A DNA stretch of 64,000 nt from a bacterium. Its GTDB lineage: Bacteria > UBA8248. How positions within the stretch are numbered: the stretch's first letter is position 1; each line of letters opens with the position of its first letter. Made by a program: the position numbers and the translations under genes. Under the pieces are notes generated by a model. It saw only the letters and a list, made by a program, of their open reading frames with translations. It searched no databases and was not told where the DNA came from. The DNA lies in assembly GCA_965204535.1 (NCBI GenBank), contig CBDBEV010000001.1, forward strand, positions 1,376,001 through 1,440,000. The letters run 5' to 3'. Below are positions 12,061-21,193 of this stretch, one piece after another.

Positions 12061-14631
12061 CTAGCGAGCCGCTTCTTCTACCGTTACCCGAGGGCTGCTG
12101 AGAAGTATTTCCGTTCGACGATTTTTGGCGCGGCCCTCTTCGGTGTCGTTTTTCGCCACCGGGCGGTAAAATGAGTAGCCGGTCGCCGACATGCGTTCAG
12201 GCGATATGTTTTTCGATTCCAGGAACTTGACGATGGCGATAGCGCGCGCGAACGATAGTTCCCAATTCGAAGGATAGCGTCTGAGCAGATTGCCTCTGAT
12301 GGGCCGATTATCCGTATGTCCTTCTACCTGTATTATTTTGTCTTTTTGTTTTCCGAGAAATTCCGCAATCTTAGAGAGCGCCTCGCTTCCCTTTTCCCTG
12401 ATCCTGGCGCTTCCCAGATCAAACAAAAGATTGTTCACGAAGGTCACGCGGAGCAAGTCTTCAGTTCTTCGCAGCGTGATGGATTGTTCCTGTAGCTTGC
12501 TGTCCATCTTCTTCAGGTCTGATTCCAGTTGCTTGGCCCGTTCGGCTTCTTCGCGTGCCCTTTTCTCCAGAACTTTAGAGCGTGCGATTGCCAGCGTGTG
12601 TTTTTTGATCGTTTCCGCCAGGCTCAGGTTTGTCTGATCCAGCTTGTTCCTGATGAGGTCGGCCACGGAGGTTTTCTCCGCGATGAGTTGGCTCATCTCT
12701 TGAACCTGCGCCCGGAGGAGTTCCCTGGCTTTTCCGAGACGGTTTGCCTCTTCGGCCCGCTTTCTTGCGAGTTCGGCGTTTCGGGTCTTTGCTTTTTCCG
12801 CCTCCGTGCGCGTCTTGCGTTCAGTATCGAGAGTTTTCCGGGTTTCTTCGAGCGCGAGTTCGAGGTTCTGGGTTTTGGTTCTTCCCTTTTCGATGGTGGC
12901 GTTTTTCTCCGAGATGAGTCGGCTCATCGCCTGAACCTGGGTATTGAGGATTTCCCTGGTTTTCTCGAGGCGCTTCATCTCCGCGGCCCGGTTTTGCGCG
13001 AGTTCGGTTTTTTGCGCGGTTGATTTCTCGGCCTTAGCCGGCGCCTTGCGCTGACTGGCGACGCTGCGTTTTTTCGCCCTTGCCTGCTCGTCCTTGATGA
13101 GTTGCCCCATCTTTCGGGCCTGGGTCTCGAGAATCTTTCTGACTTGTTCGAGGCGCTTTATCTCTGCGGCCCGTTTTTGGGCGAGTTCGGTGGTATCTTT
13201 ATTTGATTTCTCAACCTTCACCCTTATCTTGCGCTCGGTTTCGAGGGCCGCCTGGATTTGCTTGAGCGCGCGCTCGAGACTTTGGGTTTTTGATTTTTCC
13301 TGTTCGATGTCGGCGCTCTTCTTCGCGATGAGTTGACGCATGATTCCAACCTGGGTCTCGAGGCGCTCTCTGGCTTTTTCGAGACGCTTTATCTCCACGG
13401 CCCGTTCGCTGGCGAGTTTGATGTTCTGCTGACTTGCTTTTTCGGCCTTGGCGCGCATCTTGCGCTCGGCATCGAGGGCCGCCTGGATTTGCTTGAGCTC
13501 GAGTTCGAGTTTTTGAGTTTTTGCTTTTTCCTGCTCGATGTCCGCGCTTTTCATCGCGATGAGTTGGCGCATCCTGCGGACTTGCGTCTGGAGAAGCTCC
13601 CTGACTTTTTCGAGACGCTTCATCTCCCGGGCGCGGGTGCTGGCGAGTTGGACGTTTTGCCGATTTGATTTTTCCATCTCGACCCGCATCTTGCGCTCGT
13701 TCTCGAGCGTGGTCTGGATTTGCCTGAGCGTGCGCTCGAGTTTTTGGGCCTTCGCTTTTTCCTGTTCGATGTCGGCGCTTTTCTCCGCGACGAGCTTGCT
13801 CATCTTTTGAGCCTGTGCCTCGAGTCCTTTTATCTCCTCGGCCCGCGCCTTACGCTCGTTTTCGAGAGTTGCCTCGATTTGCTTGAGCGTACGCTCGATA
13901 TTTTGATTCTTCACCGCCCCTTTCTCGATGTCGGCGCTTTTCTCGGCGATGAGTCGGCTCATCTTTTCAGCCTGGGTCACCAGGCGCTTTACCTCTTCGG
14001 CCCGATTCCCGGCGAGTTGTATGTTTTGTTGATTCGCTTGTTCTGCGTCGGCGCGCATCCTGCGCTCGTTATCGAGGGAGCCATGGATGATGTCGAGCGT
14101 GACTTTGAGGCTTCGGATTTGGGCTTTTCGCTGCTTGATGTCGGCGTTTTTCTCGGTGATGAGCCGGCTCATCTCTTTCGCTTGGGTCTCAAGGCGTTCT
14201 ATGTCTCCCGCCCTCTTGGCGGCGAGCTCGAGATTTTGCTGGTTTGATTTTTCCGTCTCGGCGCGCGTCTTGCGCTCGCTTTCGAGGGCGGTCTGGTTTT
14301 CCTGGAGCGCGGACTCAAGGCCTTGGATTTTCGCTTGGCCTTGCTCGATAGCGGCGTTTTTCTCGGTGACGCGCCTGTCCAGCTCTTCCATTTGTGTCTT
14401 GGCGGAGGCGACCTCTTTTGCGAGCCGGGATCCCAGACTCTTCATCTTCTGGTCTATGTCTTTGAAGCCCTGGATGTCGCTCTTGAGCTTGGCGGAATTC
14501 TCTTTTTCTTTTGAGAGTTCAGCTTCTCTTTGCTGCAGCAGCTCTTTTGTCGATTGGGATTGCTGGGCGAAATATCCTGTCCCGCCGAGCAGAACGGCGA
14601 TAATCGCCCCTATGGAGATGCGAAGCCCCAC
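12061..14631 (-). CDS. Membrane-anchored long coiled-coil repeat protein with a C-terminal OmpA/MotB peptidoglycan-binding domain
   Basis: N-terminal hydrophobic helix; about eight EKxAxIE repeats; C-terminal LFDLGSA, VEGHTDN, SNWELSFARA and NRRTEI. Confidence 0.88.
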   Translation of the reverse strand: MGLRISIGAIIAVLLGGTGYFAQQSQSTKELLQQREAELSKEKENSAKLKSDIQGFKDIDQKMKSLGSRLAKEVASAKTQMEELDRRVTEKNAAIEQGQAKIQGLESALQENQTALESERKTRAETEKSNQQNLELAAKRAGDIERLETQAKEMSRLITEKNADIKQRKAQIRSLKVTLDIIHGSLDNERRMRADAEQANQQNIQLAGNRAEEVKRLVTQAEKMSRLIAEKSADIEKGAVKNQNIERTLKQIEATLENERKARAEEIKGLEAQAQKMSKLVAEKSADIEQEKAKAQKLERTLRQIQTTLENERKMRVEMEKSNRQNVQLASTRAREMKRLEKVRELLQTQVRRMRQLIAMKSADIEQEKAKTQKLELELKQIQAALDAERKMRAKAEKASQQNIKLASERAVEIKRLEKARERLETQVGIMRQLIAKKSADIEQEKSKTQSLERALKQIQAALETERKIRVKVEKSNKDTTELAQKRAAEIKRLEQVRKILETQARKMGQLIKDEQARAKKRSVASQRKAPAKAEKSTAQKTELAQNRAAEMKRLEKTREILNTQVQAMSRLISEKNATIEKGRTKTQNLELALEETRKTLDTERKTRTEAEKAKTRNAELARKRAEEANRLGKARELLRAQVQEMSQLIAEKTSVADLIRNKLDQTNLSLAETIKKHTLAIARSKVLEKRAREEAERAKQLESDLKKMDSKLQEQSITLRRTEDLLRVTFVNNLLFDLGSARIREKGSEALSKIAEFLGKQKDKIIQVEGHTDNRPIRGNLLRRYPSNWELSFARAIAIVKFLESKNISPERMSATGYSFYRPVAKNDTEEGRAKNRRTEILLSSPRVTVEEAAR

Positions 14632-18512: not shown

Positions 18513-18863
18513 ATGCCCAAGACAGTGGATTGGTACTACCATCGCTCCGGCTGAAAGACCTGCGCCAAAACGCAAGCGTTTCTTGCGGAAAATGGAATCG
18601 AGGTATCCGAGCAGGCCAGTTCCAGAAAAGACGTGGTGGATGAGAACAACGTCGATTCGCTTCTGGACGGCGTGACGGACGTCTATTCGACCAGGAGCAG
18701 GAAGGTCATTCACCTGGATATCAAAAAAGCGAACCCTGCGCGCGAAGACGTGCTGGCGCTTTTGATGGGCCGCTCGGGCACGCTCAGGGCGCCGGTCATC
18801 AAACATCGCAGCGCCCTCATCGTCGGCTTCGACGCGGAAACGTATTCACAGGTTTTGACGTAA
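18513..18863 (+). CDS. ArsC-family/thioredoxin-fold selenoprotein (UxxC), 116 aa
   Basis: GAGGAG then ATG 18513 gives MPKTVDWYYHRSG-U(TGA 18552-18554)-KTCAKTQAFL, in frame with the 18633-18863 ORF that contains GTLRAP...IVGF. Confidence 0.88.
18571..18587 (+). promoter_or_regulatory. Candidate bacterial SECIS for the ArsC-like gene
   Basis: CGCAAG-CGTTT-CTTGCG hairpin; the loop begins 22 nt after the UGA and has G at position 2. Confidence 0.65.
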
Positions 18864-18879
18864 ATCTTCTCTGGGTGTC

Positions 18880-20334
18880 TCAGAGGGCCAACTGGCCCTC
18901 GGTGGGTTCCGCTCAGCAGAACCACGATTCGGTCAAACGGGGCGGGCGGATTCGGTCGGGCGCGAAGGCGGCCTTTGGCTGCTCTTGATCGGGGCGTTCG
19001 AGAACCTCGGCCGCCAATTCGCGAATCCTCGCAAAAGTCACGGCGGCGTCCTCTTGGCGAGTGGCAGCGTCCTCCACGAGAGTGAGCGCCTCCTGGTGCA
19101 GCTTGTCCATTCGCGCGTCGGGATGCGCCCAGCGGTAGATGAAATTCTCGGCGTCGAGTTCGGTGATGTATCTCTTCATGTGGGGGGAGTCGAGTAAATG
19201 GGAACCCGGCGGCACCAGTAGCCGGATGGCCATCTGAATCGGGTCGACCTCGTCGATCAAGGCGTTTTCTTCAATGAAATCAAGCAAGTCGAAATAATCC
19301 TGCGCGCTTGTCCACGGCGTGAATGCGACCAGAGACGGCCTGATGGAAACGCGCGCCTCCCGGGCGGCTTTCACGACGCGGAAGACGTCCTCCCTGTTGT
19401 GCCCTTTTACCAGATGACCAAGGACGAGGTCGCTCAGAGACTCCACCGCGGTAATGATAAACGCGCATCCGTTATCTCTAAACTCCGGCAGAAGCTCCTC
19501 GTGCTTGATGAGGTGCTCGACCTTGGCCGTGAAGTCGAAGGTGAGCGAGGGAAACCGCTCGTGCATGGCGCGGGCGACCCGGAGCGCATGAGCGGGGCCG
19601 TTCAGGAAATCCGGGTCCGCAAAGGTGATGTGGCGCGCGCCTTGCGCCGCCAGGTCTTCGATGTCTTCCAGAACTTTGTCCTGCGGCACGACGAAGAAAC
19701 GGCCCTCATACACCGGCGGAATGGGGCAATGGAGGCACAAGTGCTTGCAGCCTCGGCTCGCTTCGACGGCGCCCGCAGGATAATGCTGCCCCTCCTTCAC
19801 GAGATGGGCGTATGCCTGAAGCGCGGGCAATCCTTCCCGGTCAGGTTTGAGCAGGGGGATTTTTTCGAGATACGGGCCGGATGTTCGCTCTCTCGTGGCC
19901 GCGCCGGCTACTTCAATGTTCCCCGAGGCTTGGGACAGTTCTTGAACGAGCCTCACGAGCGGAAGCTCGAACTCACCGCCGATCGCCGAATCCCCGCCGT
20001 TCTCAAGCAGATAGCCCTTGTTGAGCAGGCCGTATAGGCCATAGAAACAGATGTGGCACCCCGGGTTCGCCTCGCGTACTTTCGCCGCGACTTCCACGCC
20101 GAGCCTGAGCGCGGTGTGCATCGGTACGCTGATGCCGACGAATTTGGCATTTTCGATTTTTTGTGGGGAGAAGTCCTCCGCCGCAACGTCCATCGCCCGG
20201 GGACGAAAGCCCGCTTTGCGCAAAAAAGCCAGGGGCGAGGCGACGGCCAGGGGCTGGTGACCCAACTCGTAACACGAGACGAGGACGACGGCGCCGGGCG
20301 CTCGCCACTCCGAAGCCTTATCGGTTCGGTTCAC
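18880..20334 (-). CDS. B12-binding radical SAM selenoprotein with a CUAEP tail
   Basis: CKHLCLHC motif and an N-terminal cobalamin-binding-like domain. Reading through TGA 18915-18913 gives ...LTESWFC-U-AEPTEGQLAL* with the stop at 18882-18880. Start is uncertain (GTG 20334 versus ATG 20376). Confidence 0.88.
18883..18900 (-). promoter_or_regulatory. Candidate bacterial SECIS for the radical SAM gene
   Basis: GAGGGCC-AGTT-GGCCCTC hairpin starting 12 nt after the UGA, with G at loop position 2. Confidence 0.75.
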
Positions 20335-20356
20335 GGCGAAATCTCTCGTTCGGCAC

Positions 20357-20388
20357 AAAAAAAGCCCCGGGCGCATGATGCCCGGGGC
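20357..20388 (-). terminator. Rho-independent terminator after the iscA/erpA-like gene
   Basis: gccccgggc/gcccggggc stem followed by seven U on the minus strand. Confidence 0.8.
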
Positions 20389-20406
20389 ACATAAAGCATT
20401 GTTTTA

Positions 20407-20790
20407 TCACGTAGTGAACGATTTTCCGCAGCCGCACATGCCCATGGCGTTGGGGTTGTTGATCTTGAAGCCCGAGCCCTGGAGGCTGTCGATGAAGTCG
20501 ATTTCCGTGCCCGCGATGACGGGATAACTCTGGGGGTCCACGAACACGTCGAAGCCATCGGCGGAGAACACTTTATCCTCGGGGTTGGCGGATTCCTCGA
20601 AATACAGGCCATAGTTGTAACCCGAGCAACCGCCGGCGGTGACGGCCAGCCTGAGGCCGTGGCCGCTCTTGCCTTCCGCCTCGAGAATCTCGGCGACCTT
20701 CTTGTTGGCGAGCGGCGTAACCGTAATGCCTTCAAGGGCTTGGGGTTTCTTTTGGGACTGATCGAACAGCGTGACCGTTCCATCCGACAT
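20407..20790 (-). CDS. HesB/IscA/ErpA family Fe-S cluster carrier
   Basis: GGCSG, GFKINNPNA and CGCGKSF. Confidence 0.95.
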   Translation of the reverse strand: MSDGTVTLFDQSQKKPQALEGITVTPLANKKVAEILEAEGKSGHGLRLAVTAGGCSGYNYGLYFEESANPEDKVFSADGFDVFVDPQSYPVIAGTEIDFIDSLQGSGFKINNPNAMGMCGCGKSFTT

Positions 20791-21015
20791 CGGTTGTTTC
20801 TCCTTGACCTTGATAAGGGCTGTTGTGATTTATCGATTTATCGTTATGACCACATACCAAATATACCTCATTTCGCCTTTTTTGCAAAGGCTTGTTCCCG
20901 ATATATCCTTGAAATACAGGCTTGTTCAAGGATGAAGGCGCTTAGTCTTTCCAGAGTGGGCAGGGGAACCCCCTGGGGCATATCGAAAAATTATACATGA
21001 CATACCTTATAAAAC

Positions 21016-21044: not shown

Positions 21045-21193
21045 TTTCTTGCGTCATAAAGCCTTGGCCGCCTCCAATATAACGGAATTGACGGGGTTTC
21101 AGGCGCCGGGAAATTTATCGAAATACGGTGGAAATTTATCGATATTTATCGAAATTTTCATCAATTCCACCGGGAAATTCGGAGCACACCCTC

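Follow-up and report, generated by a model that had tools for sequence, protein, structure and literature searches.

A UGA-recoded radical SAM gene of family NF040546, its ArsC-like selenoprotein neighbour and its association with an ATP-grasp ligase and iron–sulfur helper genes

Two recoded genes and an iron–sulfur carrier

The window, the whole 64,000-nucleotide stretch analysed (contig CBDBEV010000001.1, positions 1,376,001 to 1,440,000), carries two predicted selenoprotein genes on opposite strands and an A-type iron–sulfur carrier gene, with the following features in window coordinates:

18513..18863, + strand: ArsC-family (Spx/MgsR-like) UxxC selenoprotein; NF041106 score, independent distribution
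18552..18554, + strand: in-frame UGA (Sec14) of the ArsC-like gene
18571..18587, + strand: ArsC-like SECIS hairpin; pairing across 40 distinct homolog segments
18880..20334, - strand: CUAEP-tail radical SAM selenoprotein, 484 aa; NF040546 score, start at GTG 20334 inferred
18883..18900, - strand: radical SAM SECIS hairpin, stem GAGGGCC, loop AGUU; offset kept in Sec-encoding homologs of three phyla
18913..18915, - strand: in-frame UGA (Sec) of the radical SAM tail; TGA or a Cys codon at the same position in homolog loci
20354..20388, - strand: intrinsic-terminator-like hairpin between iscA and the radical SAM gene
20407..20790, - strand: IscA/ErpA A-type Fe-S carrier; TIGR00049 above cut-off

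With TGA read as selenocysteine (U), the frame at 18513-18863 encodes a 116-aa protein with a U14-x-x-C17 motif, while the minus-strand radical SAM frame passes through the TGA at 18915-18913 into a WFC-U-AEPTEGQLAL tail and reaches its stop at 18882-18880. As the initial annotation had described, the recoded genes converge with 16 bp between their stops (18864-18879), and a gap of 15-33 bp is kept in 21/21 close relatives. For both genes the UGA aligns with Cys or Sec of homologs and a SECIS element lies 3' of it, and the genome contains tRNA-Sec, selA, selB and selD; these sequence features confirm the prediction that both neighbouring genes encode selenocysteine, in families that have already been named (NF041106 and NF040546). 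The ArsC-like gene lies at the end of a marR-LLM-cyclase run. Elsewhere in the window, the 856-aa product of a minus-strand gene (12061-14631) combines an extended, repetitive coiled coil with an OmpA/MotB-like peptidoglycan-binding domain at its C terminus.

The ArsC-like SECIS is well conserved, with 216/240 cells paired in 40 distinct homolog segments (from 45/47 loci), compared to 42% and 48% when the register is slid by one base. For the radical SAM SECIS, Sec-encoding homologs from three phyla have the hairpin at an identical offset, and Cys-encoding ones have a weaker form. Its pair count in the 4-nt-loop register (67.9% paired across 16 sequences) was equalled by 32/500 shuffles, and a one-base slide scored higher (75%, including 5 pairs with a two-sided change) because most other lineages have a 5-nt loop. 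As the pair count does not rise above shuffles, support for this element comes from its position and its folding energy (mean -11.2 kcal/mol at 53 Sec loci versus -7.0 kcal/mol at 22 Cys loci, which are not phylogenetically independent). The hairpin does start 20 nt beyond the ArsC-like stop, but the accompanying suggestion that it doubles as a 3' structure for the opposite transcript fails, with the same hairpin present in Sec-encoding homologs that have no ArsC neighbour and no terminator called at this site in a scan of the plus strand. It is an ordinary SECIS and no second role is needed.

The ArsC-like protein scores 119.7 against NF041106 (cut-off 85), with the UxxC motif present, and falls below the models for Spx/MgsR (TIGR01617, 49.4 versus 75.05) and the Spx equivalog (35.2 versus 123). 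Its best sequence matches in the PDB are Spx proteins, and the UxxC aligns with the Spx CxxC. Glutaredoxin-dependent ArsC enzymes are distinguished by a set of arsenate-binding arginines and an ars-operon context. Assignment to the glutaredoxin-dependent arsenate reductases was rejected, given Spx as the best PDB match and a C-terminal motif (VGF) that is Spx-like; the first Arg position of the arsenate-binding set is often Lys amongst homologs, and no ars genes occurred among the 75 neighbour frames scanned around them. An 'ArsC-like' selenoprotein family that may correspond to NF041106 is tabulated in PMC1794560.

The radical SAM protein matches NF040546 over profile positions 1-467 of 468 (668.4 bits, cut-off 500), with ArsL (NF040542) as the runner-up family below its own cut-off (316.8 versus 450). 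It possesses a CxxxCxxC motif, an N-terminal B12-binding-like domain and a C-terminal Cys-Sec, and C180, C184, C187 and C457 are invariant across 87 radical SAM sequences. Based on UGA-truncated database homologs of 473 aa and on relatives with GTG, ATG or TTG at that position, the most likely start is predicted to be GTG 20334 rather than ATG 20376. An AlphaFold model (mean pLDDT 95.7) is confident up to the tail, and a fold search with it returned the B12-domain radical SAM enzymes AprD4, MgmA, TsrM and OxsB as top matches; no closely related solved structure came out of a PDB sequence search, where the best E was 6e-6. The NF040546 family, with a CUAEP or CCAEP tail, is named, and termed uncharacterised, in 10.1101/2022.07.06.499078, and the window protein, a full-length match above cut-off with the CU-AEP tail and SECIS, showed no difference from it.

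The IscA/ErpA protein carries the GGCSG and CGCG motifs and scores 120.4 bits against TIGR00049 (cut-off 58.8) but does not reach the cut-off of either the ErpA or the IscA equivalog. Its gene lies, as first reported, upstream of the radical SAM gene on the same strand with a terminator-like hairpin between them (20388-20364, 9 bp of G+C followed by a T run). By eye, the hairpin is visible in 21/21 loci of the genus and also in several of the family's other genera; two lack it. The T run ends ~20 nt ahead of the likely radical SAM start codon, where a separate promoter would hardly fit, so partial termination with read-through into the radical SAM gene is likely. The iscA gene is upstream of the radical SAM gene throughout the family, with an Rrf2-iscA-radical SAM order in other genera (Rrf2 regulator ahead of iscA in 10/10 loci from six other genera). 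In this window the Rrf2 gene is absent ahead of iscA. An inverted repeat with 9-bp arms upstream of iscA (20906-20934, seen by eye) is a possible operator, and several AT-rich near-palindromes upstream of clpB (21110-21160) are possible operator sites.

Distribution of the ArsC-like neighbour

The initial annotation had proposed that the ArsC-like protein serves as a reductase dedicated to the radical SAM protein, and had set beforehand the outcome that would count against this, namely independent distributions of the two families without adjacency in other genomes. The co-occurrence and adjacency survey gave that outcome: outside one family the distributions are independent and the genes are never adjacent. 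Amongst 51 genomes of the same class, the radical SAM gene is present in 49, the ArsC-like gene (over cut-off) in 33, and both in 32, with the pair adjacent in 26 (23/23 of the genus and three in two sister genera, g7 and g9), on different contigs or 438 kb apart in five, and undecided in one; 13 of the 49 radical-SAM genomes lack any ArsC-like match. Two further phyla were sampled at 201 genomes each. In the first, to which an Acidobacteria-labelled record belongs, the radical SAM gene occurs in 31 genomes and the ArsC-like gene in 18; chance predicts 2.8 genomes with both, and three were observed, in none of which the genes are adjacent. In the second, that of a Chloroflexota-labelled record, 50 genomes carry the radical SAM gene and none the ArsC-like gene, by the same NF041106 model that did find matches in the own-class and Acidobacteriota searches. 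Ten further radical-SAM genomes had no ArsC-like match over cut-off. One unpublished genome (G098) is counted only in the Acidobacteriota tallies of 18, 201 and, below, 35.

Within the genus, a nine-gene block (dnaK-clpB-iscA-radical SAM-ArsC-cyclase-LLM-marR-yccA) is kept in 21 loci as far as the contigs extend, and in two other genera the cyclase directly follows the radical SAM gene, with no intervening ArsC-like gene. The ArsC–radical SAM adjacency is inherited synteny within one family. ArsC-like loci elsewhere have heterogeneous neighbours, the sole recurrence being three loci with a Lon-sulfatase context.

The genome is also rich in candidate selenoproteins. A heuristic UGA screen returned 177 candidates, and 38 were chosen by motif among 140 of the 177. 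At E 1e-10, 30 of these 38 have an NCBIfam match that spans the UGA (above cut-off for 12), which gives a candidate selenoproteome of ~33 genes or more (the 30, selD and the two window genes). Candidate types include ~10 AhpD/YciW-like proteins, seven of the UGSC family, four OsmC-like, several redoxins, three sulfurtransferase-like, GrdA, SelW-like and SelD; seven more of the chosen candidates lack an NCBIfam match and some of these may represent unnamed selenoprotein families. The number of neighbouring candidate pairs expected is ~0.25, for ~4,200 genes as estimated from genome size, and a second touching pair occurs on the same strand at C2:1923732-1924875 (an OsmC-related gene, then a TIGR01244-like sulfur transferase). 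On these figures, adjacency by chance would be no rarity in this genome.

The idea that the UxxC protein recycles the Cys-Sec tail in a dedicated module with the radical SAM protein and IscA, in this family at least, draws on the 26 of 32 own-class genomes with adjacent genes and on the short gap kept within the genus; yet the 21 close loci conserve the synteny of the entire dnaK-to-yccA block just as well, 13 of 49 own-class genomes have no ArsC-like match and five have the genes apart. Beyond the class, co-occurrence is at chance level in the Acidobacteriota and 50 versus 0 in the Chloroflexota, the neighbours of ArsC-like genes vary, and several redoxins amongst the ~33 candidates place other reductases at hand. 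A module of this kind is very improbable, and the ArsC-like gene very probably has no part in the radical SAM system. The ArsC-like protein as tail reductase is a false lead that is now removed.

An ATP-grasp ligase and iron–sulfur helpers across phyla

Open reading frames were clustered from 78 radical SAM neighbourhoods (23 from the own class, 29 Chloroflexota, 22 Acidobacteriota and four Actinomycetota, several of them close kin), and 64 of 140 candidate neighbour proteins were scanned with Pfam. The neighbours were an ATP-grasp enzyme of the L-amino-acid-ligase type (32 neighbourhoods), YggX (27), true IscA (16), NfuA-type proteins (15), a formyltransferase (15) and the ArsC-like protein (6). 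The ligase, YggX and NfuA-type genes recur across phyla, true IscA and the ArsC-like protein are restricted to this family, and the formyltransferase is confined to the Chloroflexota, bar one weak distant match.

A ligase profile, built from 14 sequences that neighbour radical SAM genes (some from sampled genomes, though most matches fall in genomes outside that set), sets the subfamily clearly apart from the remaining ATP-grasp proteins (E below 1e-110 versus above 1e-60). In the Acidobacteriota, the ligase is present in 30/31 radical-SAM genomes and in 35/201 overall, where 5.4 genomes with both would be expected, and 15/30 pairs lie <2 kb apart; without G098, the 30/31 is unchanged and 30 of 34 ligase genomes, in 200, have the radical SAM gene. 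The Chloroflexota give 48/50 radical-SAM genomes and 60/201 overall (14.9 expected), with 33/48 pairs <2 kb apart. In the own class, the ligase is found in 46/49 radical-SAM genomes and in neither of the two without the radical SAM gene. Across the two phylum samples, 17 ligase-positive genomes (5 + 12) had no radical SAM gene detected. These counts include kin that are not independent and are uncorrected for phylogeny, which overstates their significance. With that caveat, the radical SAM, ligase and Fe-S helper genes both co-occur and recur as neighbours across phyla, and the ligase very probably acts in the same pathway as the radical SAM protein. A complex prediction for the radical SAM protein (without its last 11 residues) and the ligase scored 0.00, which speaks neither for nor against.

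In this genome the ligase gene (C2:2592023-2593261) lies 1.2 Mb from the radical SAM gene, tail-to-tail with an NfuA-type gene. That pairing is seen in 25 of the best 30 own-class ligase loci, while in the other five the ligase adjoins the radical SAM gene. At this two-gene locus (C2:2591413-2593271), the NfuA-type gene encodes an N-terminal carrier-like domain without the cysteines, and the pairing is kept in most of the class. Five genomes of another own-class family (G041-G045) have two ligase copies, one directly downstream of the radical SAM gene. Homologs of the partner ligase share ATP-grasp_4 and LAL_C2 domains with the BacD and DdaF ligases, whose models match at E 3.7e-20 and 1e-10, respectively. 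However, the partner falls far below their cut-offs, with no NCBIfam family above cut-off, and forms a distinct subfamily with an invariant Cys in an IGG-x-C motif, a position that is a Cys codon in 6/6 TGA-flagged ligase loci examined.

Of the two core genes, radical SAM and ligase, one usually has an iron or Fe-S helper beside it: IscA here, and an NfuA-type protein or YggX elsewhere. The link to an Fe-S carrier drawn in the initial annotation holds in this broader form, with such helpers flanking the radical SAM or ligase gene in three phyla, and for IscA itself within the family: the 'IscA-like' neighbours outside the family are NfuA-type (one tested), so true IscA adjacency is specific to the family. 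In the Chloroflexota, the radical SAM gene is present in 34/45 YggX genomes and in 33/34 with a strong YggX match (E below 1e-29), and YggX adjoins the ligase where the radical SAM and ligase genes are separated. YggX was not found in the genome under study, which is 95.7% complete.

In one Chloroflexota lineage (L084-L096, L235, L236), the ligase–radical SAM pair is flanked on one side by an NfuA-type gene and on the other by either a 2-oxoacid oxidoreductase or lipB-lipA-pyruvate dehydrogenase; with moaA frequently close by, these form a group of Fe-S-dependent genes. Tails of the Actinomycetota members (L087, L088, L093, L095) read CCSEP, and their genes share a conserved context of another kind, with an aldehyde dehydrogenase, a CoA-transferase and a 600-aa protein with no Pfam or NCBIfam match at the thresholds used; the ligase was not found inside these four loci.

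The radical SAM–ligase–helper set was not found in the literature searched. The expectation of an undescribed system stands to the extent that the radical SAM protein belongs to one absent from that literature, but its core partner is the ATP-grasp ligase outside the window.

Possible chemistry and its meaning

The reading preferred here, to which we give a probability of roughly 0.5, places the radical SAM protein and the remote ATP-grasp ligase in one pathway, with IscA as the likely cluster supplier, the ArsC-like protein as a lineage-specific neighbour and chemistry resembling that of ArsL. Recoding signals, family membership and the patterns of co-occurrence and adjacency are observed; every chemical step, the heteroatom, the end product and the pathway's direction are inferred. 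ArsL, the nearest characterised family, cleaves SAM to an aminocarboxypropyl (ACP) radical and needs its RCCLKC tail for As(III) binding (10.1101/2024.02.01.577332), with arsenic bound via all three tail cysteines (10.64898/2026.04.29.721666). The window protein is 36% identical over 420 columns to an RCCLKC-tail protein, shares its domain order and likewise ends in a thiol-rich tail. It differs from ArsL in falling below the NF040542 cut-off, in having ~45 extra residues ahead of the tail and in a tail of Cys-Sec with the third Cys missing, and it is not assigned to ArsL. The genomic context also differs, NF040546 genes occurring with the ligase and Fe-S helpers, and ArsL with ArsM and ars genes.

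Following ArsL, the radical SAM enzyme would cleave the C-gamma-S bond of SAM and move the ACP group onto an atom held by the Cys-Sec tail, after which the ligase would link the non-standard amino acid so formed to another amino acid through an amide bond. A formyltransferase may cap the product in many Chloroflexota, and loading or repair of the [4Fe-4S] cluster would fall to IscA, NfuA-type proteins or YggX. With ArsL as the nearest characterised family, ACP chemistry is, by analogy, slightly favoured for the radical SAM enzyme, although 36% identity does not fix the mode of SAM cleavage and the top fold matches are other B12-domain radical SAM enzymes. Sulfur or selenium might be guessed as the acceptor atom, arsenic being less likely because the tail offers two ligands and no ars genes occur among the neighbours scanned. 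The product is likely a molecule derived from amino acids. Single-copy genes that are near-universal within lineages speak for a metabolite kept inside the cell, not for an antibiotic that is exported.

A different relation between the same genes is conceivable, in which the radical SAM enzyme and ligase act on protein or on Fe-S biogenesis, modifying NfuA-type proteins, YggX or IscA or making their ligand, so that the helpers are clients. This would fit the iron or Fe-S helper found beside the radical SAM or ligase gene at most loci, the strong Chloroflexota YggX clade that is nearly confined to radical-SAM genomes (the 33/34 above) and sits beside the ligase if the core genes are apart, and the Rrf2 regulator ahead of iscA in the other genera. 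It is nonetheless unlikely, as three unrelated helpers interchange, which is more what cluster suppliers than a specific substrate would do, the search found no YggX in this genome, and the best named relatives of the ligase, BacD and DdaF, are small-molecule ligases. More doubtful still is an organoarsenical pathway, with a hydroxyarsinothricin-like ACP-As compound made into a dipeptide by the ligase. ArsL is the nearest characterised family and one RCCLKC-tail cluster has an ATP-grasp gene 2.1 kb upstream, but that ATP-grasp protein is just 23% identical to the partner ligase, the tail lacks the third cysteine of ArsL, and 0/64 scanned neighbour proteins match an arsenic-resistance or ArsM family at E 1e-12. 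The RCCLKC-tail (ArsL-like) cluster with its nearby ATP-grasp gene sits on a Priestia plasmid (L268:1626-6266).

Within the preferred reading of one radical SAM–ligase pathway, a more specific product can be imagined, though as a long shot: transfer of ACP to the tail sulfur or selenium, followed by ligation, might yield a (seleno)homocysteine-containing peptide, which could be a new low-molecular-weight thiol or selenol for the Fe-S traffic of NfuA, IscA and YggX in the Acidobacteriota, the Chloroflexota and this lineage.

The window contributes a test that speaks against the ArsC link and an example of a split module, each half beside its own Fe-S carrier; with the module split in this genome, a search limited to neighbouring genes would overlook the ligase. 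Reconstitution of the uncharacterised radical SAM family can now start from named genes. As ArsL is the only CxxxCxxC enzyme reported with an ACP radical in the literature searched, a Sec-tailed sister family with a dedicated ligase tests the reach of this chemistry and the atoms it may use.
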